In this document: positions 11,150-38,104 of the stretch, one piece after another
How the letters are laid out: each line of letters opens with the position of its first letter
Position numbering within the stretch: the stretch's first letter is position 1
From: Candidatus Magasanikiibacteriota bacterium
GTDB lineage: Bacteria; Patescibacteriota; Patescibacteriia; Magasanikbacterales; GWA2-37-8
DNA: 64,000 bases
Reading direction: 5' to 3'
Assembly: GCA_016182085.1 (NCBI GenBank)
Contig: JACOYB010000004.1
Coordinates: 75,976-139,975 of the forward strand
Program-made: the position numbers and the translations under genes
Notes under the pieces: generated by a model
What the model was told of the DNA's origin: nothing
The model's database searches: none
What the model saw: the letters and a program-made list of their open reading frames with translations, nothing else

Positions 11150-11287
11150 TGTCATTCCCGCCGAAGCGGGAATCTAGTATCCGGTTGGGGTTGTCTCTGG
11201 ATTCCCGCTTCGGCGGGAATGACAGGTGTAGATCCCTCCGCTGTGGTCGGGATGACAATGAAACAATCCCGCTTGTGGCGGGACTGC
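11150..11287. repeat. palindromic hairpin-pair repeat element, copy A1 (two units)
   Basis: tgtcattcccgccgaagcgggaatc...gattcccgcttcggcgggaatgaca, then agatccctccgc...ggtcgggatgacaatg plus hairpin tcccgcttgtggcggga. Same family as 30902, 32057, 36567, 45190 and 45780. Confidence 0.85.
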
Positions 11288-22333: not shown

Positions 22334-24919
22334 TTAAAAAGACTTCATTCCGTTCAAATCTAAATATACCCCAAACGGTGTTGCCTTCCAATAAGACATA
22401 TTTATACCATAAGTTAGTAGTATTTGAGTTACAGTATTAGAGCTTATGCCCTTAATTGGGAGGAAGTAGCTAGCGGGTATCTTTACTTTGTGAGTCATTG
22501 CATTATTATTTTCATTCTTATATTCTTCTTTATAGTCTGCCTCTATATTTTTAAATATACTTTCCAAGTTGATCCCTTTAAGACGATCAACATATTCCTT
22601 GGTTCGGATATTTGCCTCCACTGGATTAGTAATAGTTTGCACAGACGTAAGAATATCTCTATATAAATCTATAAAATCTTTTAAGTATTCTTTTTCCTTA
22701 ATTTGATGCCAGAATCTTGTATCTGGATCAGTAAACATAATTAAATTATACTCATCCAAAGCTTTTGCTAAAGTTTCCCACAAATTATCCTGTTTTTCTT
22801 TAGGCTTCTTAAGCTCTGATAATTTATATTCTTTCCAAAAATGTTTTATATCTGTATATACAAAAGAGCCAGTAATCTGTGCTAGGTAAAGTGCCATTTC
22901 AAGAGTGCCGCTCATTTGATAAACATGCATTTGACCCCCTTTTTCACCGATACCAATTGGTTGTAAGGATGCTAGTGGGTTGTCTAGTTTTTTCTTTTGT
23001 ATATATTTCAAGGCATCCTCAATCTCTTCTTCAGAAGCATTGGGTGATTTTTCTTTAAGTTTGTATTTTAAAATATCTGGTGGTAAGTTAAAGATCGAAC
23101 TTTTCATATCATCTCGCATCAATTTTTGTGCAAGATCTGTATCATTTTTATCTATACTACGATATTTCATTCTCGCTTCAGCCATTTTATAAGTACGTTT
23201 TTTTAAATCTAAATTAAAATCGCAGGGATCTGGGATCATTTCGACAATGCCAGAATCAATAAGAGGCATTAAGCCCAGTATTAAATTAACATTTTTAATC
23301 GTGTTCTCCATGTATTGATGAGGGTTTTCATAAGGGCTATATTTTTCGTTCATGGTCCTGGGATTTAAAAATGGCGAATACATAATTATCTTATCGACAT
23401 ACAGAGAATAACCCATTATTGTTAGTGGGGTTACTCTGGGGTCAAGTGAACCATGGTAAAGGGCTTTTAATTCATCTTTATTTGGCTTTGATAGCAATGC
23501 TGTTAGCTCGGTATCAGGATTCCAGAGATGCCCTATGACACGGTATAATTCCCGAATTTTATCATCAGTCAACTCTTTGCGAAAGTCATCCCAATTTATG
23601 CCTTTATCAAAACCAAATATTTTGTAGATCGCATTATTTAGAATCTCGTTTCTCTCTTTAATTGAGTATTTTCGTACTGGGTCATTCTCATTTTCTCTGC
23701 TTGTATGCCTACGACCAAACGCATCCTGATACCAAGCGAGGCCGCCATCTTTGCCGCCAACATAAATTTCACCTCCAAACTGGTATAATCCATCCTTTGG
23801 TGGTAGTAGTATTTTATATAAAGACCCCCACTCATTTTGAGAGTATGTTTTTTCTGGGTATAGCCATTCTAATTTCCCAGCAGCAATGTACTTTCGAGCA
23901 CGGTTTTTTATAATATAGTTAAACGCACGCACTTCTTCGGCTTTTAATTTCCTTTCTCGTATAACAGTATCCCACCTAGTTATAGTTTGAGAAAAGAATC
24001 GCGGGTTAGTTCTGCTGGAAACTGGATCTACTTCGTTTGGAGAGGTCGCATATTCAAGGTTTGTTAAAACAAGACAGTGGTTTAAATCTAATGGAAATAT
24101 TGTTTGAGATGCCTTCCACGCTGTTGAGGGATCGTTGGGGTATTTGCATGCCTCTGACTCAGGAGGGCAGGCGGGATTATATATTGTCACAGGATGGTCA
24201 GAGATAATAAATTTAATATCGGATTCTTCGGCAGAAACTATCTCCATCACTCCCTCTATCCACATAGTACAATGCATGGTTCTTAAAAATTGCATTTCTA
24301 GTAGCAGTTCATCTTTTGTAAGCTGAAAATAGTTAGAACGAATCCAATCAAGCCCCTTAATAGTCCGTAGCTTTTGGGCATCAATATATACAAATATATC
24401 TTGAAAATATTTATGTAAAATATTAGGATCATTTGCTACTAATCCATCTATGGCAGCAGAAATATTGTTATCCATCTTTCCAAATAAAAGAGTTTCTATA
24501 TCCTCATTTCTCATGCCAAAGAAATTTGTCGTATATAAATTTTTTTTATGAAAATAACTTCCAGGTCCCTTATTATATTTCTCTGTAAGTTTTACTCGTC
24601 TTCCATTCGGGAGATCCTTATAAGGCTTTAAATCAATACAGTGCAGCGTTTTTTGTCCAGGTAGAAGGAATCTTTTTTGGTATTTAATCGGAACATAATG
24701 ATTATTTTGTCTTTTTGGCTTTGATGCGTATAACATAAAGTCTCCGTTTTGATTTTTAGATGTATCGTTATAATTTAACCTCTGGATTGAATTACTCAAT
24801 ACAGAATACTCTTGAGGAGTAGAAGCTTCTCGAGTTTTATTAATGCAACATTTCTTATATTTTTTACCACTCCTACACGGACATGGCTTGTTTAAGTATT
24901 TTCCTTTCCCCATAAACAA
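22334..24919 (-). CDS. large SEC-C-motif plus DUF4238-like domain protein with ~430-aa uncharacterised C-terminal half
   Basis: N-terminal KPCPCRSGKKYKKCC (SEC-C metal-binding motif), then NHYVPIKYQKRF...IISDHPV characteristic of DUF4238. Very AT-rich. Immediately downstream of tRNA-Asn on the same strand. Confidence 0.7.
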   Translation of the reverse strand: MFMGKGKYLNKPCPCRSGKKYKKCCINKTREASTPQEYSVLSNSIQRLNYNDTSKNQNGDFMLYASKPKRQNNHYVPIKYQKRFLLPGQKTLHCIDLKPYKDLPNGRRVKLTEKYNKGPGSYFHKKNLYTTNFFGMRNEDIETLLFGKMDNNISAAIDGLVANDPNILHKYFQDIFVYIDAQKLRTIKGLDWIRSNYFQLTKDELLLEMQFLRTMHCTMWIEGVMEIVSAEESDIKFIISDHPVTIYNPACPPESEACKYPNDPSTAWKASQTIFPLDLNHCLVLTNLEYATSPNEVDPVSSRTNPRFFSQTITRWDTVIRERKLKAEEVRAFNYIIKNRARKYIAAGKLEWLYPEKTYSQNEWGSLYKILLPPKDGLYQFGGEIYVGGKDGGLAWYQDAFGRRHTSRENENDPVRKYSIKERNEILNNAIYKIFGFDKGINWDDFRKELTDDKIRELYRVIGHLWNPDTELTALLSKPNKDELKALYHGSLDPRVTPLTIMGYSLYVDKIIMYSPFLNPRTMNEKYSPYENPHQYMENTIKNVNLILGLMPLIDSGIVEMIPDPCDFNLDLKKRTYKMAEARMKYRSIDKNDTDLAQKLMRDDMKSSIFNLPPDILKYKLKEKSPNASEEEIEDALKYIQKKKLDNPLASLQPIGIGEKGGQMHVYQMSGTLEMALYLAQITGSFVYTDIKHFWKEYKLSELKKPKEKQDNLWETLAKALDEYNLIMFTDPDTRFWHQIKEKEYLKDFIDLYRDILTSVQTITNPVEANIRTKEYVDRLKGINLESIFKNIEADYKEEYKNENNNAMTHKVKIPASYFLPIKGISSNTVTQILLTYGINMSYWKATPFGVYLDLNGMKSF

Positions 24920-24983: not shown

Positions 24984-25055
24984 CTCCCAGGCTTGGACTC
25001 GAACCAAGGAAATCCACGTTAACAGCGTGGCGTTGTACCGCTCAACTACCTGGGA
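24984..25055 (-). tRNA. tRNA-Asn (anticodon GUU)
   Basis: Minus-strand cloverleaf. Acceptor UCCCAGG/CCUGGGA, D-arm GUUG..CAAC, anticodon stem CCACG/CGUGG with loop CUGUUAA, T-arm CUUGG-UUCGAGU-CCAAG, discriminator G. CCA not encoded. Confidence 0.85.
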
Positions 25056-27156: not shown

Positions 27157-27699
27157 CTACTTGGTCGCGGTCGCTCGCGCCGAGCGGAAGTGGCGGGCGC
27201 AGGCGCAGCGGTGCGTTGGAAACAGTTCGCCCAAGTGTTGGGCCAGAGGTGAAAGCGGATGCCGCAACTGCATTGCCTGCATGAAGCCGGTAACGAGTAC
27301 GCATTTCGCCTCTTCGGGGCAGAAGACTATGACTTTGAGCGCAGCCAGCTTCTGCAGCTGCTCCCCGCTCATTTCCTGCACACCTTCCACCTTGCCAACA
27401 GCGTCAACTGCCAGAGCCAGATTATCAAGGTATGCCTTGCCGGCCTCACCTTGATTTCTGAAGAACTCAATTGAATATCTGCACGCTATGGCCGTTCCTT
27501 CGTCAAGGAAATCTGGCTTCACCAGGAACACAACGTCGTTCGGCGTTGGAATCTGAGCGATCGGAGTTCCGCTCGTATTGGCCGGTGAATAGGTAAAGAG
27601 CACGGGGTTGTTGTTCATGATTGCCTCGCGTGGTGATGGGTACACCGTAGCTTGTACTACGGTGATTTGAAAAAGTTCAACCTGGGTATTTATATCCAA
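27157..27699 (-). CDS. hypothetical protein encoded in a GC-rich (~55%) island
   Basis: 180 aa (or ~153 aa from MNNNPV). Composition contrasts sharply with its neighbours. No motif recognised. Confidence 0.4.
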   Translation of the reverse strand: MDINTQVELFQITVVQATVYPSPREAIMNNNPVLFTYSPANTSGTPIAQIPTPNDVVFLVKPDFLDEGTAIACRYSIEFFRNQGEAGKAYLDNLALAVDAVGKVEGVQEMSGEQLQKLAALKVIVFCPEEAKCVLVTGFMQAMQLRHPLSPLAQHLGELFPTHRCACARHFRSARATATK

Positions 27700-27777: not shown

Positions 27778-29247
27778 ATGCCTCAAGATAAAGAGAAGTT
27801 AGCAGGATCGGAAAGCAAAGCTATTGCCAAACGAGCCGAAGATTATTCCCAGTGGTACATTGATATTATTGATGTTGCGGGTCTGGCCGAGCACGGGCCG
27901 GTAAAAGGTACAATGGTGATAAAGCCATATGGCTACGCGATTTGGGAGAATATTCAAAAGATTTTAGACGCAAAATTTAAAGAGTTAGGCGTGCAAAATG
28001 CGTACTTTCCTTTGTTTATTCCTGAAAGTTTTTTGAAAAAAGAAAAAGAACATGTGGAAGGATTTTCGCCGGAGTTGGCAGTGGTTACCCACGGCGGCGG
28101 TAAAAAGTTGGAAGAACCGCTGGTGGTGCGCCCGACTTCGGAAACTATCATGTATAGCACCTTTGCCAAGTGGATACATTCATACCGTGATTTGCCGCTG
28201 CTTATTAATCAATGGGCCAATGTAGTACGCTGGGAAATGAGGCCGCGGTTGTTTTTGCGTACCACTGAATTTTTATGGCAGGAAGGGCATACAGCTCACA
28301 AAACTGCCGATGAAGCCAAAGAATATGCGCTCATGATTTTAAATGATGTGTACAAATGGTTCGCGCAAGAGTATTTGGCAATTCCGGTTTTGGTTGGGCA
28401 AAAATCTCAGAATGAACGATTCGCTGGCGCGCTTTCTACATTTACGATAGAAGCCTTGATGCAAGATGGGAAATCTTTGCAGATGGGTACAGCTCACGAC
28501 CTGTCAGATCATTTTGCTAAATCATTTGAAGTAATGTATTTGGATGAGAAGGGTGAGCAGCAGTTTGTGTTTCAAACCAGCTGGGGTGTCAGTACACGTC
28601 TGATTGGCGGTATTGTTATGAGCCATAGTGATGATAATGGGTTGGTATTGCCGCCAAAAATTGCGCCAATTGAACTTGTAATTGTGCCGATATTTAGAAA
28701 TGCGGATGACGCGCAGCTGCAAGAAGCAAAAAAGATAGCAGAAAATTTAAAGAATACATTCAGAATAAAATTAGATGAGCGGGATAATTTACGAGTGGGG
28801 GAGAAGTTTTTTGAATGGGAAAAAAAAGGCGTGCCGCTGCGTTTGGAAATCGGACCGAAGGATTTGGCTGCCGGACAGTGCGTGCTCGTGCGCAGAGATA
28901 CCGGAGAAAAAATTGTGTGTCCGCTTAGTGATGTAGAAAAAACGGTGAAAGATTTGCTTGAAAAAATCCAGACCAATTTATTTGAATCAGCCTTGGCCCG
29001 ACAGAAACAAAATACTGTATCAGTAGATAATTGGGATGCGTTTGTAGAATCTTTGGAAAAAGGCGGATACATTTCCGCGTTTTGGTGCGAGCGAGCGGAG
29101 TGTGAGTTGGAAATAAAAGAAAAAACCAAAGCAACCACCAGATGTTTACCGTTTGATGCTGAAGAAGAAACAGGTAAGCATGTTTGTGTCCATTGTGGTA
29201 AAGCTGCGCCGCAAGGCAAGCGTTGGATTTTTGCCAGAGCGTATTAA
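27778..29247 (+). CDS. proS: prolyl-tRNA synthetase (archaeal/eukaryote-like class II form)
   Basis: 489 aa. WYIDIIDVAGLAEHGPVKGTMVIKPYGYAIWENIQ..., class II motifs and a C-terminal zinc-binding tail (CVHCGKAAP). Confidence 0.9.
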   Translation: MPQDKEKLAGSESKAIAKRAEDYSQWYIDIIDVAGLAEHGPVKGTMVIKPYGYAIWENIQKILDAKFKELGVQNAYFPLFIPESFLKKEKEHVEGFSPELAVVTHGGGKKLEEPLVVRPTSETIMYSTFAKWIHSYRDLPLLINQWANVVRWEMRPRLFLRTTEFLWQEGHTAHKTADEAKEYALMILNDVYKWFAQEYLAIPVLVGQKSQNERFAGALSTFTIEALMQDGKSLQMGTAHDLSDHFAKSFEVMYLDEKGEQQFVFQTSWGVSTRLIGGIVMSHSDDNGLVLPPKIAPIELVIVPIFRNADDAQLQEAKKIAENLKNTFRIKLDERDNLRVGEKFFEWEKKGVPLRLEIGPKDLAAGQCVLVRRDTGEKIVCPLSDVEKTVKDLLEKIQTNLFESALARQKQNTVSVDNWDAFVESLEKGGYISAFWCERAECELEIKEKTKATTRCLPFDAEEETGKHVCVHCGKAAPQGKRWIFARAY

Positions 29248-29261
29248 AATATTTAAAAAAC

Positions 29262-29300
29262 AAAAAACAGCCTTTGATGAAAACGCTGTTTTTTGTTTTT
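29262..29300 (+). terminator. rho-independent terminator after proS
   Basis: aaaaaacagcctttgatgaaaacgctgttttttgttttt. Confidence 0.6.
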
Positions 29301-29342
29301 GCCTCGACCCATGCTTCACAGCATTGGTCGAGGCTTGTACAA

Positions 29343-30023
29343 CTACCTCTGGCCCTTGGGGTCCCGTCCGTCAGGTGCGGCCTTGCGGCGCGCCTTGGCC
29401 CTGTCCTTCTTGAACTTTTTCCAGTCCTTGGCACCCGTGCTGGTGCTGGTCGTGGTCTGCTGCGGCGAGTTCTCCTCGTACCACTTCGCGTCCTGGCAGG
29501 CATCAGCCATGCAGTACTTGAAGTAGTTGGGAATCATCGCCTTGCAGTCCGGACCAGCGCACTGGTGGCCACAGTCAGAGCAGTAGAGCCCACCGTCCGC
29601 CGGAATCTCGACACTGCACCCCTTGCAGGGCTTGGTGGCGAATTCCGAACAGTTCGGGCAGTAGGTGTGCCACACCGGAATGGTCCGGCCGCATCCACCC
29701 CAGCAGGAATGAACGCAGTCGTCGCACAGCCCGGAGCGGTGGCCCAGTGGCAGCCGGTTGGTGCACTGCGCGCCGGTATCCGGGTGCTCCCGGTTGCGAC
29801 ACTGCTTGGTGGCCGGAGCCATGATCTTCGGCGGCGGAACCACGGGGGGTTCCACCACGGTCGGCTTCATCTGCTTGAGCTGTACCTCCTGGGACAGCGG
29901 GTTGGTGTCGGTCGTCTCCGGGGCGTTGGCCTCGGAGGTGGTGACGGACATCTGGTTGTTGATGGCGCCGGTGAGGATCTGGCCGAGGATGTTGACCAGG
30001 GAATCGGTGAGACGAGCGAACAT
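29343..30023 (-). CDS. cysteine-rich multi-zinc-ribbon protein in GC-rich island
   Basis: 226 aa from MFARL. AAGGAG SD 6 nt upstream. About eight CxxC/CxxxxC pairs (CDDCVHSCWGGCGR, CPNCSEF, CKGCSVE, CSDCGHQCAGPDCK). The plus-strand 350-aa ORF is a GC-rich shadow. Confidence 0.5.
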   Translation of the reverse strand: MFARLTDSLVNILGQILTGAINNQMSVTTSEANAPETTDTNPLSQEVQLKQMKPTVVEPPVVPPPKIMAPATKQCRNREHPDTGAQCTNRLPLGHRSGLCDDCVHSCWGGCGRTIPVWHTYCPNCSEFATKPCKGCSVEIPADGGLYCSDCGHQCAGPDCKAMIPNYFKYCMADACQDAKWYEENSPQQTTTSTSTGAKDWKKFKKDRAKARRKAAPDGRDPKGQR

Positions 30024-30325
30024 GGCATTCTCCTTGTTGAACTCGATGTTCTTCGTAGAAGCGCGCGGGTTGGACCGCACACTTCTTGGAGAGATGGCAC
30101 GCTGTTCATCTCAGCAGGTTGTCATGTGCGGCGTAAAGACAAATTTCATTGGGATAGTCGCATAGATCACCTCGTGGTTAAGTTGTACAGAACGCGGAAA
30201 CCCCGCCTATATATGGCAGTTATTCCGACAGAAAGAAGTTTAAATCCTTTCTCTTGGAACAACAAGAGAGACTAAACAATGTATCATAAAACTCTGGCTT
30301 TGTCAACCGTATATGCTCGCACAAA

Positions 30326-30901: not shown

Positions 30902-30974
30902 TGTCATTCCCAACGAATTGGGAATCCAGTATCCGGCCGAATTGTCTGGATTCCCGCTTGCGGCGGGAATGACA
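30902..30974. repeat. palindromic hairpin-pair repeat element, copy A2
   Basis: tgtcattcccaacgaattgggaatccagtatccggccgaattgtctggattcccgcttgcggcgggaatgaca. ~80% identical to the A1 first unit. Immediately 3' of trpS. Confidence 0.85.
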
Positions 30975-31961: not shown

Positions 31962-32056
31962 AGTATTGATTACACGGATTACAGTATGGATTACGCAGAT
32001 TTGAAATTGATAGAGATAGTTTACCGAATTTGTTATGGCTTGTAAACAATCACAGT

Positions 32057-32186
32057 TGTCATTCCCCTAACAAGGGGAATCCAGTATTCGATCGGGTCGA
32101 CTGGATTCCCGCTTTGGCGGGAATGACAGTTGGGACAGAGATCCCTCCGCGGAGTTTATACCCTTTAGGGTGGTCGGGATGACAAT
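32057..32186. repeat. palindromic hairpin-pair repeat element, copy A3 (two units)
   Basis: tgtcattcccctaacaaggggaatccagtattcg...ctggattcccgctttggcgggaatgaca, then agatccctccgcggag...ggtcgggatgacaat. Lies between rlmH and trpS. Confidence 0.85.
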
Positions 32187-32207: not shown

Positions 32208-32687
32208 TTAATAATGATAATTCCTGCCGGTATTTATCATCATGGCCCGATAAATTTGTTCCCATAAAAATACCCGGGCCATTTGGTGGGTAAAGGTCAT
32301 GGAAGACAAAGAGAGTTTTAGCTTCGCTAGTTTTAGAATAGACTCATGCAGTCCGAGCGGCCCGCCGATGATAAAAGTGAGATTGTTAATTTGTTGATTA
32401 GTTAACTGGTTGATTTGTTTGGCAAAATCAATTGAAGAAAAATTTTTGCCATGTTCGTCCAGCGCAATTACATGTGCGTCTTTTATTTTGTCTAAAGCCG
32501 CCAAGATTTTTTCCGCCTCTTTTTGTTTTATATTTTCTATATTATCTTTTTCGGAAAAAGATTCTTCACGCAACTGGTGAATAATAATTTTGGCCCAAGG
32601 TTTTAGGCGTTTAAGATATTCAGCCTCGGCTTCTTGCCAGAAAGCTTCTTTTAATTTTCCGAGAACGATTAAATCTATATGTAACAT
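32208..32687 (-). CDS. rlmH: 23S rRNA (pseudouridine1915-N3)-methyltransferase RlmH
   Basis: 159 aa SPOUT-type. MLHIDLIVLGKLKEAFWQEAEAEYLKRL and C-terminal MARVFLWEQIYRA. Confidence 0.78.
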   Translation of the reverse strand: MLHIDLIVLGKLKEAFWQEAEAEYLKRLKPWAKIIIHQLREESFSEKDNIENIKQKEAEKILAALDKIKDAHVIALDEHGKNFSSIDFAKQINQLTNQQINNLTFIIGGPLGLHESILKLAKLKLSLSSMTFTHQMARVFLWEQIYRAMMINTGRNYHY

Positions 32688-33242
32688 ATATAGTATGTAG
32701 CCACGCTCTTAACATTTAATTAGAACATTAGGAGCGTGGCAGACCAACCTTGAGTTATGGGCTAGATGCCGCGCTGACCTCGTCGCCTGACTGCATGCTT
32801 TGGCGGCAGATCTGCCGCATTCGCCGCCCTGGTCGGCTTGTTATGCGGAGGCAGGCAACTTTCAGCCAAACGCGGTGTGAAGTCAATGCCAAGCCAGCCG
32901 AAGATCGGACAGTAATAGTGAGAGAGCGCAATACCCATGGTATCCCCCTATTTTTTGATGTTGCTATCCTGGATAGTAGCGTACGAGTAACCCCAAAGTC
33001 AATTGTGGGTAACTAAGGTTGTACATTGTTGTACATACAAAAGGGTTTATGTTATATTAAATTTATCAAAGACTTACTTACTATGTATGTCAAAACTACT
33101 TAAGCAATCAATGCCGCCGCCCGGGCGCTCTGCGCAAAGTAGGGAAGCTATACAAACGCGACCCAATCCTTTAGGCAGTCTGGATCAAAAAAGGCAAGAA
33201 AGCGTGTTGCCGCAAGCAGTAATCAAAAATTTAGTAGGTAAA

Positions 33243-33273
33243 TAAAAATCCCTGATTTATTTCGGGGATTTTT
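33243..33273. terminator. terminator-like hairpin
   Basis: aaaaatccctgatttatttcggggattttta. Confidence 0.45.
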
Positions 33274-33333
33274 ATTTGTAGCTTAGAGCGTTCATTGACA
33301 ATCAACCAAATACTCACAGACAGGAAGTACCAC

Positions 33334-35670
33334 ATGTCGAAGAAAAGAGATCAGCGCGTCTATTTTTTGAGCGAGATCGCGTACGACGCTCACTTCTTCA
33401 ATGCGGATGCCTATGAGAATTTGGTCAGGTTCCTTGAACAGGATCCCGACGATATCATGCTGGTGGTTGATGGCGCCTTAATTCGCCTCGATCGTCCAGA
33501 AATTCTCAACAGCCTCCTGACGTATTGGGAAAAGAGCGAGAAGGAGTGCCGCAAGGCTAGTGACTTAGTGCCTAATTACGAGCAGAGCCAGAGCATGTTG
33601 AAAGTGCAAATGGAAATCTTGGATAAACATCTGGCTAATCTGCGCAAGCGTTTGCCTGAAGCCAAGATTGTGCTGTGTGTTGATAATGACGATACTCAAT
33701 ACACGGTTTCTCGCATACTTTTGGATCTTCTCATTCATCGCCGCGCCCAAATTAATATGGCCATCAAGGAGATGGTCAAGGAAAAGAGGGGCTTGGCTAC
33801 GGAGTATAAAAAACTCCGGAAGGAATACCGAACCAAGAAGTTCGTTTCTGGAAAGCGCAAGGCAAAGCGCCGGACGATCAAGAAACAACGCCGCGCCCTC
33901 AAGAAAATGGAAGCAGAGATCGTGGCGAGCAAGCAAGAGCTGACTTTGTATCGGGCGCAGAAGATTCGTCCGACGCATCAATTCGTAACGGCTACGTTTG
34001 TAAAGCACCTGATGCAAATGTACAAGGATATTTGCATCAAGCATGAGGTTGAGTTCATGGATCGGCCGCAGGTTCTGCGGTTTGGTAAATCGGAAAGTGA
34101 TCTGACGGTGAAGTATGCGCATAGCGGCCATAAGACTTGGATGCCGGTGCTTCATCGAGATCATTCCTTGGTTCGTTCGGTGCTGGCTAACCAGAACAAG
34201 TACAATAATCTGATTAAGCAGGTGGCTAGCGAAGCTGAGGCGCAGCAGTTCAATGTTTGTGTTGAGAGCGGGCACCATGGAATTGGCTTTGCTACCCTGC
34301 AGAAAATCAAGGACCATCTTCAGGAGACCAACTTTAAGGGGAATTCTGCCTACGATCCAGTGATTGCCGGCTTGAAAGATTACGTGAAAATCTGTTTGGC
34401 AATTCCCTTTGAAGACCAAGAGCTTATTGTGCGGTTTTTGGAGAACCAAGAGCCGGTTCGCATGAGCCTGGGTAAGCCGGGCGGTACAAGGAGTCACGAA
34501 GTCTTCCGTCGTCTCCACAACGGAAGTGTTTCTGGTTTGTTCATGCTTACTAAGAGTGCCAGTGATGGTCTCCTTTGGACTCGATACATCCAGTATCAGG
34601 ACTTTAAGGATGGATCGGTTCTCAATCAGCCAAGTCGCTACTTTGCCGCGTGGGTTACTTCCGATGAGCACTTGGGTTCTCCGGAAGAAAATCCCATGGT
34701 GCGAGATGGTCTGTTCGCCCTCTGTAAGGCGCATGCCGATAATCCATTTAACTTCTACGGTCGGCCAACTGAGCTCGCGTCGTTTATCAGCGGCGGCGAT
34801 ACTTCGGAAGCAACGCTCATCAGGTGGGATCGTCGGTACGATGATCGGCGTGACCCGCAAGAGCTTCTGCAAGAAAATATTGGCAAGTTGGCTAACTTGG
34901 ATCAGGAAAATAGGGAAGAAATTCTTGAGTTAGCCGCCAAAATGGTGAGCGATACAATGAGCGGCTACCCGGGCAGTATGCGAGTGATGTTGGAAAGAGT
35001 GGCCAGGTACTATCAGCAGTTCCTGGATATTACTCTGTCGGTGAGCAAGTCCAAGTGGGCACATCTCTCTGTTCCCGGAAATCACGCAGACGGCGTGTTG
35101 CGTCAAACTGGTTTGCGGGAAACGGATTTTTTTGCGAGAGATGTTAAAGCCCAAGGGGTTGGAGTGTACGAAGTCGGAGTGTCTGATCACTATAGGGCTG
35201 ATTCAATGCAAGGGGCGCGTGTTGGTTTGGGTGGGTATGGTGATGCTCGTATTATCCATATTGAGGATTACGGGCATGGTGTAGATGGCGAGGCATTGTT
35301 CGGTCCAATCAGCTTGTTGATTCAGCATGATCCTGAAGGGCCCGGTACAAGCGGACTGGTTGGCGCAGCGGAAAAAGTAGGCGCAGATGTGGCGCTGGCT
35401 GGCCATGTTCATGAGAATTGGGTAAAGCTGTTCCGGATTGGACTCAACCAATTCAGGGTGGCCTACCGACTCTCTACCGTTCAGGGTGTAACCATGACGG
35501 AAAAGAAGTATGCCAGCTCACCGCCGCGAACGCAGGCTGCACACTGTATTATCATGCCTAAGCCGGGTGATTTTGCAGAAAAAGCTCTGCCAGCTGCGTA
35601 CCTGCGGGAAGTGGGTGTACGGTACAACCTGCAGAAGGTTGAAGAAGAAATTGCCAAGAAAGATACGTAA
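33334..35670 (+). CDS. large metallophosphoesterase-motif protein with KR-rich coiled-coil insert (GC-rich island gene)
   Basis: 778 aa from the ATG with AGGAAG SD (the ORF track starts at an upstream TTG). Calcineurin-like motifs LVVDGALIRLD, GNHADG and AGHVHENW, separated by a long K/R-rich coiled coil (KEKRGLATEYKKLRKEYRTKKFVSGKRKAKRRTIKKQRRALKKMEAEIV). GC content well above the local background. Confidence 0.55.
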   Translation: MSKKRDQRVYFLSEIAYDAHFFNADAYENLVRFLEQDPDDIMLVVDGALIRLDRPEILNSLLTYWEKSEKECRKASDLVPNYEQSQSMLKVQMEILDKHLANLRKRLPEAKIVLCVDNDDTQYTVSRILLDLLIHRRAQINMAIKEMVKEKRGLATEYKKLRKEYRTKKFVSGKRKAKRRTIKKQRRALKKMEAEIVASKQELTLYRAQKIRPTHQFVTATFVKHLMQMYKDICIKHEVEFMDRPQVLRFGKSESDLTVKYAHSGHKTWMPVLHRDHSLVRSVLANQNKYNNLIKQVASEAEAQQFNVCVESGHHGIGFATLQKIKDHLQETNFKGNSAYDPVIAGLKDYVKICLAIPFEDQELIVRFLENQEPVRMSLGKPGGTRSHEVFRRLHNGSVSGLFMLTKSASDGLLWTRYIQYQDFKDGSVLNQPSRYFAAWVTSDEHLGSPEENPMVRDGLFALCKAHADNPFNFYGRPTELASFISGGDTSEATLIRWDRRYDDRRDPQELLQENIGKLANLDQENREEILELAAKMVSDTMSGYPGSMRVMLERVARYYQQFLDITLSVSKSKWAHLSVPGNHADGVLRQTGLRETDFFARDVKAQGVGVYEVGVSDHYRADSMQGARVGLGGYGDARIIHIEDYGHGVDGEALFGPISLLIQHDPEGPGTSGLVGAAEKVGADVALAGHVHENWVKLFRIGLNQFRVAYRLSTVQGVTMTEKKYASSPPRTQAAHCIIMPKPGDFAEKALPAAYLREVGVRYNLQKVEEEIAKKDT

Positions 35671-35690
35671 GCAAATTTTAAAAAGTCGTT

Positions 35691-35720
35691 GGGCGTCCGA
35701 AATGTCGGCGCCCTTTTTGC
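35691..35720 (+). terminator. rho-independent terminator
   Basis: gggcgtccgaaatgtcggcgccc followed by ttttt. Confidence 0.6.
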
Positions 35721-35733
35721 TGCTAAATATTTT

Positions 35734-36984
35734 TTAAATCCATTTATTTTTTAATTCCATAAATTTATTTTCCTGTATCGCGGTTCTGGCTTGGCGCATC
35801 AAGTCAAGCATGAAAAATAAATTGTGAATGCTAGACAAGCGCATAGCCGAAATTTCTCCGGCATTAAACAGATGGTGCAAATAGGCGCGTGAATAATGTT
35901 GACAGGTATGACAACCGCAATTGGGGTCTACGGGGCCGCTGTCTGTTGCGTATTTTTTATTGGTAATATTTATTCTCAACTTTTGTTCTTCAGTTGGACC
36001 GACAAATAGCATGCCGTGGCGGGCTAGTCTGGTTGGAGCCACGCAATCAAACATATCCACGCCATGTTCTATGGCAATGAGCAGATCGGTAGGTGACAAG
36101 CCAATGCCCATGGCATAGTGCGGTTTATTTTCCGGAATGAGCGGAAATACCCAATCCAAAATATCTTTGGTCGCCTCCATATTGTAGCCAACCGATTCGC
36201 CGCCAATCGCAATGCCATCAAAATCCAAAGATGAAATATATTTGGCAGATTCCTGGCGCAAGTTTTTGTATACAGATCCTTGAATAATGCCAAATAAAAA
36301 TTGTTTGTAGTCGCGAGTATTTTGCGCGGATAATTTTTGGTGTTCATCTAACGATCGTTTGGCCCAACGATGTGTGCGTTCCATGGCTTCGCGCGCGTAT
36401 TTTTCTTCTACGCTATCTGGCGTGCATTCATCAAAAGCCATAATAATATCCGCGCCGATTTTATGCTGCGTTTCAACGGCTATTTCGGGAGTAAAACGGT
36501 GTGAGCTGCCATCTATATGAGATTTAAAAGTAACGCCTTCTTCATCTATAGAAACAAGCTGTGCGTTGTCATTCCGACCGGAGTCCGTAGACAGAGTGGA
36601 GGAATCCCTCTCGTCTGGTTTAAGGGATCCCTCGACTGCGCTCGGGATGACAGTTGTTGGCCTTGATCTTTTTTGTTTCCCTAAACTAAACACCTGGAAT
36701 CCGCCACTGTCGGTAAGAATTGGCTTGTTCCAGTTCATGAATTTATGCAGCCCGCCAAATTCGTTAATTAAATCTTCGCCCGGACGCAAATGTAAATGAT
36801 AGGTGTTGCCCAAAATAATTTGGGCGGGCAAGTTTTGCAGATCGGTTTGATCTAACGTTTTAACGGTAGCTTGAGTTCCTACCGGCATGAAAATAGGTGT
36901 CAAAATATCGCCATGATCAGTATGGATTACGCCGGTTCTAGCCCGGGAATTTTCGTCTTTATGCTGTAGTTCAAAAAATGGCAT
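35734..36984 (-). CDS. tgt: queuine tRNA-ribosyltransferase carrying an in-frame repeat-element insertion
   Basis: MPFFELQHKDENSRARTGVIHTDHGDILTPIFMPVGTQATVK, TDSGGFQVFSLG and the zinc motif CGCHTCQHYSRAYLHHL. Start set at MPFFEL. The ORF-track N-terminal extension is unsupported. Contains about 30 extra residues encoded by repeat A4. Confidence 0.88.
   Translation of the reverse strand: MPFFELQHKDENSRARTGVIHTDHGDILTPIFMPVGTQATVKTLDQTDLQNLPAQIILGNTYHLHLRPGEDLINEFGGLHKFMNWNKPILTDSGGFQVFSLGKQKRSRPTTVIPSAVEGSLKPDERDSSTLSTDSGRNDNAQLVSIDEEGVTFKSHIDGSSHRFTPEIAVETQHKIGADIIMAFDECTPDSVEEKYAREAMERTHRWAKRSLDEHQKLSAQNTRDYKQFLFGIIQGSVYKNLRQESAKYISSLDFDGIAIGGESVGYNMEATKDILDWVFPLIPENKPHYAMGIGLSPTDLLIAIEHGVDMFDCVAPTRLARHGMLFVGPTEEQKLRINITNKKYATDSGPVDPNCGCHTCQHYSRAYLHHLFNAGEISAMRLSSIHNLFFMLDLMRQARTAIQENKFMELKNKWI
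36567..36652. repeat. palindromic repeat element, copy A4, inside the tgt coding sequence (in frame)
   Basis: tgtcattccgaccggagtccgtagacagagtggaggaatccctctcgtctggtttaagggatccctcgactgcgctcgggatgaca. Its reverse complement translates as RPTTVIPSAVEGSLKPDERDSSTLSTDSGRNDN between conserved Tgt blocks. Confidence 0.8.
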
Positions 36985-37036
36985 GACCCCATAGTAAAAG
37001 ATTTTGTACAAATAATCAAGATATGGTAGTATGTGA

Positions 37037-38104
37037 TTGTTTATGATGAAAGCAAAGTTGATCCTAAAAGATGGTTCGGTGTTTGAGGGTTTTTCTTTTG
37101 GTTCAGAGACTGGCACCAGTGGTGAAGTGGTATTTAATACAGGCATGGTAGGGTATCCCGAAACCATGACCGATCCTTCATACCGCGGACAAATTTTAGT
37201 AATGACCTATCCGCTCGTTGGAAATTATGGCGTGCCATCTGCAACAAATGCAGATGATTTTTTTAAATACTTCGAATCGGGCGCTATCCAAATCACGGCT
37301 TTGATTGTGAGTGAACAGTGTAAAGATTTTTCTCACTTCAGCGCAACAAAATCTTTGTCGGACTGGATGAAAGAAAACAATGTGCCCGGCATATATGGCA
37401 TTGATACGCGCGCCTTAACAAAAAAATTACGCGCCAGCGGCACCATGCTCGGCAAAATTATAGTTGATGAAACAAGCAATATAGAATTTGATGACCCTAA
37501 CACTCGTAATTTGGCAGCCGAAGTAAGTGTTAAAGAACCAATAAAATATGGCAGCGGGGAAAAGACGGTGATTGTGGTGGACTGCGGCGTGAAAAATAAT
37601 ATTATTCGTTCGTTTGTAAACAGAGGCGTGTCGGTTTTACGAGTTCCTTGGAATTATAATTTCTCGGATACGGCTGCTGATGGCATTTTAATTTCCAACG
37701 GGCCGGGTGATCCAAAAATGTGTACAGACACGATTGCAAATGTTAGGGCCGCGCTTGCGGACAGCCGGCCAATTTTGGGGATTTGTTTAGGCTCGCAAAT
37801 TTTAGCGCTGGCCGCCGGAGCTGATACCTATAAATTAAAATACGGACATCGCGGACAAAATCAGCCATGCGTGGAAATGGGCACGAAAAAATGTTTTATC
37901 ACTTCACAAAATCACGGCTTTGCCGTGGACACAAAAACGCTGCCCGAAGATTGGCGCGAGTGGTTTGCAAATGATAACGACGATACCAATGAAGGTATTA
38001 TTCATATTTCCAAGCCGTTTTTTGGCGCGCAATTTCACCCCGAAGGCGCGCCGGGCCCCGATGACAGTGAATTTATTTTTGATATGTTTATCAGGTCGCT
38101 TTAA
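37037..38104 (+). CDS. carA: carbamoyl-phosphate synthase small (glutaminase) subunit
   Basis: GEVVFNTGMVGYPE, the GICLGSQ catalytic Cys and HGFAV/QFHPE motifs. Confidence 0.9.
   Translation: MFMMKAKLILKDGSVFEGFSFGSETGTSGEVVFNTGMVGYPETMTDPSYRGQILVMTYPLVGNYGVPSATNADDFFKYFESGAIQITALIVSEQCKDFSHFSATKSLSDWMKENNVPGIYGIDTRALTKKLRASGTMLGKIIVDETSNIEFDDPNTRNLAAEVSVKEPIKYGSGEKTVIVVDCGVKNNIIRSFVNRGVSVLRVPWNYNFSDTAADGILISNGPGDPKMCTDTIANVRAALADSRPILGICLGSQILALAAGADTYKLKYGHRGQNQPCVEMGTKKCFITSQNHGFAVDTKTLPEDWREWFANDNDDTNEGIIHISKPFFGAQFHPEGAPGPDDSEFIFDMFIRSL

Follow-up and report, generated by a model that had tools for sequence, protein, structure and literature searches.

A rare tandem metallophosphoesterase protein with an internal coiled coil in CPR bacteria and DPANN archaea

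The gene, its two folds and the helical arm

The DNA described here (the window) is a stretch of 64,000 nucleotides from a metagenome-assembled genome of a Candidatus Magasanikbacteria bacterium (candidate phyla radiation, CPR; Patescibacteria), whose genes carry locus tags of the form HYT15_008xx. The TrpRS, S12 and EF-G of the window match GenBank proteins of this genome exactly, which places it on a contig of 410 kb. Between rlmH and tgt it contains a GC-rich segment of about 3 kb with a single long open reading frame (ORF) on the plus strand, which the ORF list gives as 33295 (TTG) or 33334 (ATG) to 35670, and which encodes a protein that we call X. A preliminary description of this DNA had read the segment as a laterally acquired island carrying a nuclease-like metallophosphoesterase (MPE), possibly with a regulatory RNA as its leader. 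The gene itself is real. The N-terminus of the 778-aa ATG form matches the N-termini of the 38 homologues in a 39-sequence alignment, a ribosome-binding site (AGGAAG) lies 6 nt ahead of this ATG, and on these comparisons the start at 33334 is the correct one. The GenBank protein MBI2037465.1 begins at Met227 of X and covers residues 227-778 only. The 226 residues that it lacks (window 33334-34011) cover part 1 of the N-terminal domain together with most of the arm, and they are conserved in every homologue. The raised GC content is also as described, with 0.499 for the gene against a window mean of 0.424, and with 0.557 at third codon positions (GC3) against 0.35-0.45 in 12 housekeeping genes of the window (proS, trpS, rlmH, tgt, carAB, uvrD, rpsL, rpsG, fusA and others). 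An AlphaFold2 (AF2) model of X (pLDDT 89.4, pTM 0.88) has an MPE fold in both domains; as modelled, X is two MPE folds in tandem, with a coiled coil inserted in the first. Its parts are as follows.

33334 to 35670, plus strand: gene X, 778-aa tandem-MPE protein, stop codon 35668-35670 (ORF list, homologues, alignment, AF2 model)
33334 to 33687, plus strand: N-terminal MPE-fold domain, part 1, residues 1-118
33688 to 34041, plus strand: helical arm, residues 119-236 (DSSP of the AF2 models)
34042 to 34629, plus strand: N-terminal MPE-fold domain, part 2, residues 237-432
34630 to 35667, plus strand: C-terminal canonical MPE domain, residues 433-778
34663 to 34671, plus strand: D444-E-H446 of C-domain motif I, S-S-D444-E-H446-[IL]-G
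34795 to 34800, plus strand: G488-D489 of C-domain motif II, G-G488-D489
35077 to 35085, plus strand: G582-N583-H584 of C-domain motif III, G582-N583-H584-A-D586
35326 to 35328, plus strand: H665 of C-domain motif IV, Q-H665-D-P
35404 to 35412, plus strand: H691-x-H693 of C-domain motif V, G690-H691-x-H693-E
35691 to 35718, plus strand: predicted intrinsic terminator of X, stem GGGCGTCCG / CGGCGCCC followed by TTTTT (sequence read directly)

The C-terminal domain contains the full calcineurin-like motif set I to V (DxH, GD, GNH[DE], H, GHxH) within residues 444-693. These motifs are invariant or nearly so across the family alignment, whose 39 members are 33-95% identical to X, and the domain has the four-layer alpha/beta-beta/alpha fold of the superfamily. 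This changes the layout proposed earlier, in which the MPE motifs were spread over the protein around a coiled-coil insert of about 250 aa. The strings quoted in support of that layout (LVVDGALIRLD, GNHADG and AGHVHENW) and the K/R-rich helix are all present, but LVVDGALIRLD lies in a separate N-terminal MPE fold, and the insert is about 118 aa long (residues 119-236) and is part of the N-terminal domain.

That N-terminal domain has the MPE fold and lacks the complete motif set. At the motif-I position it has S13-E14, with no DxH. The motif-II position is occupied by the invariant D46-G-x3-R51-x-D53-R54-P55-E56 (nt 33469-33501), which is the LVVDGALIRLD string, and the motif-III position by D119-D120. 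H263 is invariant at the motif-IV position, as is G313-H314-H315-G316 at the motif-V position, where the second His of GHxH is lost. Throughout the 39-sequence alignment the residues at the motif positions are invariant or nearly so, and PFEDQ (358-362), R376 and R393 are further invariant residues of this domain. Comparison of the N-terminal with the C-terminal half by hhalign gave no detectable similarity (E 0.46), so that an origin of X by tandem duplication is unproven.

The arm is inserted directly after the motif-III position (D119-D120). According to DSSP of the AF2 model it consists of three helices, two of which (119-167 and 172-205) form an antiparallel coiled coil and the third of which (209-236) is a return helix; the K/R-rich helix of X belongs to this arm. 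Its length is 79-110 aa in 38 of the 39 members, and its sequence is variable except at the invariant base, R207-x2-K210-x-R212-P213-x-H-Q216. Because the arm has no conserved Cys pair, it has no zinc hook.

Membership of X in the superfamily is thus read from fold and motifs. X did not match Pfam PF00149 or PF12850 even at E<=10, and only one family member, P0069, passed the Pfam metallophosphoesterase gathering score (21.6 vs 21.5 bits), with P0015 reaching 15.0 bits. Searches of Pfam, NCBIfam and the PDB with the single X sequence gave no significant match, and the same was true of the 39-sequence family profile against the PDB. PDB searches bridged through P0069 and P0101 were likewise without a meaningful match, as were PADLOC and PHROGs for X, and a structure search of BFVD returned weak single-domain MPE matches only. 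The structures nearest to the C-domain are PolD DP1, SbcD and Mre11. The idea of a nuclease-like MPE protein holds at the level of fold, and the profile searches gave no significant match to any MPE or nuclease family in Pfam, NCBIfam or the PDB.

Family, genomic slot and descent

Full-length homologues of X form 61 clusters among 5.8 billion proteins, and a profile search found 57 representatives among 1.84 billion proteins, none of them named and none with a Pfam domain except for the fusions described below. Remote members (P0095, P0100, P0101 and P0107) retain the two-domain layout and most C-domain motifs. Where the source of a member is named it is Woesearchaeota or Nanoarchaeota, and the archaeal hosts were confirmed by flanking genes for TFIIE, Hjc, exosome, PCNA, proteasome and L37ae. 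The bacterial members comprise a Magasanikbacteria clade of ten sequences (58-95% identity) and a second group (P0051 and others) in a dnaK/sigma-70/secDF context. Bacterial and archaeal members are about 40% identical and share more than 45 invariant positions. The family is rare, unannotated and restricted to CPR bacteria and DPANN archaea. Two members, P0042 and P0045, each carry two C-terminal Fis-type HTH_8 (helix-turn-helix) domains (E 2.7e-18). A neighbour-joining tree with midpoint rooting places the bacterial sequences in a single subtree inside the archaeal diversity, which points to one ancient transfer between the domains; DPANN to CPR is its simplest direction. Literature searches found no account of a tandem or double metallophosphoesterase architecture and nothing relevant on DPANN metallophosphoesterases with a coiled coil. 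The tandem MPE with an internal coiled coil is a previously undescribed architectural variant of the superfamily.

The gene order around X is shared among relatives: proS, a DUF5671 gene, trpS, (rlmH), X, tgt and then uvrD. X occupies the same slot in L001 (95% protein identity), L002/L003 and L009 (64%), L010 (59%) and L004 (58%); a contig scan with the single X protein had matched only the 95% relative. These data bear directly on the proposal that the 3-kb segment is a recently acquired island with a defence or repair nuclease. Its composition (GC 0.50 vs 0.42, GC3 0.56 vs about 0.40) agrees with such an origin, as do the hairpins at both of its ends, which were confirmed at 32700-32740 (13-nt arms) and at 35691-35718. 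The latter, a GC stem at 35691-35713 with TTTTT after it, makes a good intrinsic terminator between the convergent X and tgt. The very patchy distribution of the family, with its few representatives on both sides of the boundary between bacteria and archaea, is a further point in favour. The presence of X in the same slot down to 58% protein identity argues against it. Moreover, in each of the 13 loci compared, bacterial as well as archaeal, the GC content of X exceeds that of its flanks, by +0.02 to +0.10 and whatever the GC content of the host. The excess is real, but it characterises the family and does not mark X as a recent arrival. No integrase-like gene was found among the neighbouring ORFs scanned with Pfam, there are no direct or other repeats at the segment borders, and the only tRNA gene of the window lies 7.7 kb from the segment. 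The GC-rich patch upstream of X, searched for as a repeat or mobile element, occurs in a single copy in the window. The combination expected of a recent island, namely an empty site in relatives with mobility genes or repeats, was not found. A phage or plasmid origin of X is rejected because no homologue was present in 50,697 phage records and 72,556 plasmids (tblastn) or in the IMG/VR scans. We regard the island as largely refuted and its probability as very small. X has been inherited vertically within a Candidatus Magasanikbacteria subclade, of which it is a stable resident and not a recent import.

The region upstream of X and other features of the window

Upstream of X the preliminary description had seen a GC-rich leader with a perfect hairpin and no good ORF, and had suggested that it might be a regulatory RNA. 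The features found in this region, and their counterpart in relatives, are listed here.

32700 to 32740, no strand assigned: hairpin (arms of 13 nt) that separates the rlmH start from the small ORF; L001 keeps the stem, with a loop 8 nt shorter
32762 to 32938, minus strand: candidate 58-aa small ORF in the GC-rich leader, ATG preceded by a GGGGGA ribosome-binding site
33240 to 33277, no strand assigned: AT-rich hairpin, 57 nt ahead of the X start, with 16-nt arms and A/T runs on both sides, 100% conserved in L001
33295 to 33333, plus strand: proximal 5' region of X, with TTGACAA (33295-33301), a CA-rich stretch and the ribosome-binding site AGGAAG (33322-33327)
L002 9706-10000, L004 9508-10000, L009 9645-10000 and L010 5049-5353: putative sigma-70-like promoter upstream of X in relatives (T-run, TTGCGT, 17 nt, TACGCT)

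The statement that the leader has no good ORF is doubtful. The 58-aa minus-strand ORF stays open in L001 despite an in-frame 6-nt indel, and its N-terminus (MGIALSHYYCPIFGW) and C-terminus (AVRRRGxRGI) are conserved there, with a variable middle. It has no family match and no homologue in relatives beyond L001. It is a plausible small gene, and its coding status is unproven because a plus-strand ORF also stays open; the latter is likewise without homologues. A 52-aa plus-strand ORF (33087-33245) was considered as a leader peptide and rejected, as it has three amino acid changes relative to L001 (R to C, Q to R and P to L), no ribosome-binding site and no homologues. As for the perfect hairpin, GCGGCAGA/TCTGCCGC does exist as an 8+8 palindrome, but it has no loop and lies in the GC-rich upstream part, which is the least conserved (66% identical to L001). 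The AT-rich hairpin at 33240-33277, which was absent from the preliminary description, resembles a terminator in both orientations.

Relatives at 58-64% identity share with the window only the last ~45 nt upstream of X (TTGACAA, the CA-rich tract and the ribosome-binding site). The upstream sequences of L002, L004 and L009 have TTGACAA(Y)(Y)(C)AAC in common, and blastn of the upstream region against L004 reaches 33290 only. The leaders of relatives at 58-71% identity are 300-490 nt long and are otherwise unrelated to the window. The TTGCGT-17-TACGCT promoter stretch appears to have been lost in the window and L001. The leaders of L002 and L009 contain a hairpin, CATRCCT-TAATART-AGGYGTG, with one compensatory G:C to A:T change.

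Could X nevertheless be controlled by the ~550-nt upstream region (32740-33290), either as a structured regulatory RNA or as a long leader acting in cis? Over the noncoding stretch 32901-33333 the identity to L001 is 94-99%, and it is 96-99% within 32940-33333; the X coding sequence reaches ~92% and the neighbouring genes 84-85%, or 84-86% for trpS and uvrD. A terminator-like hairpin precedes the start codon by 57 nt, and the palindrome has one apparently compensatory change. This comparison covers two sequences, the window and L001, which are too few for covariation. Against a regulatory RNA, the only Rfam match at the gathering score in the whole window is tRNA-Asn at 24984-25055, and at E<=10 the matches in 32650-33400 are noise, all of it on the AT-rich hairpin. 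The folding z-score is -0.76 for 32745-33000, no better than shuffles, and -1.8 for 33060-33333, mostly from the same hairpin. The region's lack of conservation in relatives at 58-71% identity also speaks against it, and the minus-strand small ORF with its ribosome-binding site explains the GC-rich part better. The regulatory RNA is thus unsupported by these searches, and we consider it very unlikely.

Several other features of the window were recorded, as follows.

22334 to 24919, minus strand: 861-aa low-GC ORF (GC 0.345, GC3 0.29) with an N-terminal SEC-C motif and DUF4238, adjoining tRNA-Asn (24984-25055)
27157 to 27699, minus strand: GC-rich 180-aa ORF (GC 0.545, GC3 0.62)
29223 to 30275, plus strand: GC-rich 350-aa ORF (GC 0.568, local windows up to 0.64), between proS and the DUF5671 gene
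35734 to 37167, minus strand: tgt, tRNA-guanine transglycosylase, 477 aa vs 385-419 aa in L004, L009 and L010

The 861-aa ORF is a better candidate for foreign DNA than X because its composition is opposite to that of X. The two GC-rich ORFs have no Pfam or NCBIfam match. L001 has both of them, and L004 and L009 have no gene at the position of the 350-aa ORF. The block from proS to the 350-aa ORF is 96.8% identical to L001, compared with 84-85% for the neighbouring blocks, and this contrast suggests mosaic recombination between strains. A palindromic element (GGATTCCCGC...GCGGGAATGAC) resembling REP (repetitive extragenic palindromic) sequences or MITEs (miniature inverted-repeat transposable elements) is found between genes at 32046-32140, 11150-11225 and 30946-30974, and it has many copies in L002, including an inverted pair within the tgt coding region (L002 13175-13250). 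The spurious ORFs 'VIPAKAGIQ' and 'IPALAGMTV' derive from this element. The tgt of the window contains a low-complexity insertion (…SRPTTVIPSAVEGSLKPDERDSSTLSTDSGRNDNAQ…), which may be an in-frame insertion of a repeat element. Part of tgt is variable between strains, since the alignment of the window with L001 breaks at 36303-36329 and 36555-36670.

Possible functions of X

For X the analysis establishes the reading frame, the two MPE folds, the conservation of the motifs, the occurrence of the family across lineages and the synteny, whereas metal binding, catalysis, a nucleic-acid substrate and the roles of the arm and the N-domain are inferred. The explanation that we prefer, with confidence slightly above even, is that X is a cytoplasmic tandem-MPE protein in which the C-domain is a nucleic-acid phosphodiesterase and the N-domain is a second protomer that carries the arm. 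As all canonical metal ligands and catalytic residues are kept, the C-domain is predicted to be an active binuclear phosphodiesterase of the Mn/Fe/Zn type. It would be nuclease-like and act as an exo- or endonuclease on the ends of DNA or RNA. The D-x-H-[IL]-G form of motif I, the DP1, SbcD and Mre11 structural neighbours, the many invariant arginines and the HTH_8 fusions make nucleic acid the most likely substrate, to which we give slightly better than even odds; the fusions are the best independent hint of a DNA-related role. The N-domain, which keeps an invariant constellation of acidic, His and Arg residues, most likely serves as an intramolecular second protomer, like the second subunit of an Mre11 or SbcD dimer, and would bind substrate and shape the cleft. 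The antiparallel coiled-coil arm, about 70 Angstrom long, would function in oligomerisation or in the docking of a partner.

X differs from the systems that it resembles. Compared with Mre11 and SbcD, its two lobes are fused in one chain and are dissimilar in sequence, and its coiled coil is an insert of ~118 aa in an MPE domain rather than the 200-900-aa arm of a separate ABC ATPase. X has no zinc hook, ATPase or capping-domain profile and no match to the Mre11/SbcD profiles (TIGR00583 mre11, TIGR00619 sbcd, Pfam Mre11_DNA_bind and SbcD_C). Neither the window nor any of 12 related loci encodes a Rad50/SbcC ABC ATPase beside X, and no conserved CxxC is found in the arm. The likeness to PolD DP1 and to the eukaryotic polymerase B-subunits (Pol alpha, delta and epsilon) is at the level of fold only: X has no match to Pfam DNA_pol_E_B, an N-terminal OB fold is not apparent by DSSP, there is no polymerase gene nearby, and X occurs in bacteria that have no PolD. 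LpxH-type MPEs have a helical insertion between motifs III and IV, whereas the insert of X is a long two-helix coiled coil, and X also contains another MPE domain and is not found in the context of a lipid A pathway. B. subtilis YfkN, a secreted protein anchored to the cell wall, has more than one MPE domain per polypeptide, and a 5'-nucleotidase C-terminal domain comes after each of them. X shares the multiple MPE domains but has no 5'-nucleotidase domain, is neither secreted nor wall-anchored, and has no match to the Pfam families 5_nucleotid_C or Metallophos.

Several points weigh against the preferred explanation. No sequence or profile method (Pfam, NCBIfam, PDB phmmer, hmmsearch) ties X significantly to any MPE or nuclease family. 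The fold leaves the substrate unfixed, because nuclease-type, small-molecule-type (MJ0936, LpxH, YfcE) and non-catalytic (Vps29, polymerase B-subunit) MPEs all score within ~2 Z units of each other. The motif equivalences of the N-domain are read from positions after predicted strands. The arm has a net charge of +17 in X against a family mean of +5, with some members negative, so that a strongly basic arm is peculiar to X and not a family trait. X shows no specific linkage to a Rad50/SbcC-like partner, a helicase or another DNA-repair gene, and uvrD, 5.6 kb away, belongs to the general synteny. The transfer from DPANN to CPR is itself inferred, as the tree is a simple one. Finally, the conserved archaeal neighbours of X, a protease and an AAA unfoldase, suggest a protein-directed context and not one of DNA. 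The recurrent archaeal cluster (protease, coiled-coil classical AAA, 122-127-aa membrane protein, tandem-MPE), which may be an uncharacterised DPANN module in its own right, lies at the following positions.

L005 9104-13563
L006 7720-12343
L012 8001-14600
L013 5449-10283

In each of these four loci, out of six archaeal ones, only a few genes separate X from a Trypsin_2 protease that starts with a signal or lipoprotein-like sequence and from an AAA ATPase with an N-terminal coiled coil, which is orthologous between loci (35-41% identity). Two archaeal loci share the membrane protein, and a fifth has an 801-aa AAA protein and a proteasome subunit upstream of X. It is conceivable that X is part of a multi-gene system whose other members are the AAA+ unfoldase with its coiled coil, the trypsin-like protease, secreted or a lipoprotein, and the small membrane protein. 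This would be either a defence system like IetAS (IteAS), the ATPase-protease anti-phage system, or a proteostasis or cell-surface module. X might then be a protein phosphatase or an ATPase-activated effector, and the bacterial X would be orphaned or repurposed. The archaeal AAA does match the PADLOC IetA models (E 3e-36), but it fits CDC48, PAN and CdvC at least as well and reaches 108.7 bits against the NCBIfam IteA cut-off of 510, and we rejected it as IetA in favour of a generic CDC48/PAN-like AAA. The protease, which has a signal peptide, is of the trypsin/HtrA type, whereas IetS is an S8 subtilase. None of the archaeal partners is encoded in the 64-kb window or adjacent to X in six bacterial loci, and the genes that flank X are housekeeping genes rather than defence islands. 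X has no PADLOC match, and it lacks the PPP-phosphatase signatures GDxVDRG and SAPNY. The defence role proposed earlier finds no support in these results, and a multi-gene system of any of these kinds seems to us quite improbable. Another alternative, also unlikely, though less so, is that X is a phosphoesterase for a small or non-nucleic-acid substrate, with the helical insertion as a substrate lid. Candidate substrates are nucleotides, cyclic or linear oligonucleotide signals, Ap4A, polyphosphate, or a lipid pyrophosphate as in LpxH, and the small-molecule MPEs among the structural neighbours are compatible with this. However, a two-helix coiled coil of ~118 aa far exceeds the known lids, the HTH_8 fusions and the DxH[IL]G motif I favour nucleic acid, and a two-domain protein of 780 aa with 40% identity across domains of life would be unusual for a simple nucleotide hydrolase.

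The nucleic-acid phosphodiesterase reading can be carried further, to a proposal that we think distinctly unlikely. X could be a single-chain analogue of the Mre11-dimer/Rad50 complex, in which the two fused lobes form a DNA-end-processing cleft with a built-in arm, which replaces the canonical complexes in CPR and DPANN, and which in archaea is coupled to an AAA unfoldase/protease module. If this were true, X would represent a new kind of system for the surveillance or scavenging of nucleic acids, peculiar to ultra-small symbionts.

CPR bacteria and DPANN archaea have many conserved proteins whose function is unknown. X overturns nothing known by itself, and its analysis exposes a public annotation that is short of the first 226 residues. 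It is a large, strongly constrained CPR/DPANN protein that was unseen by every profile library tried, and its assignment as a fused MPE leads to a hypothesis that can be tested biochemically. With X a well-studied superfamily gains an architectural type, and the protein is a clean example of gene sharing between CPR and DPANN.

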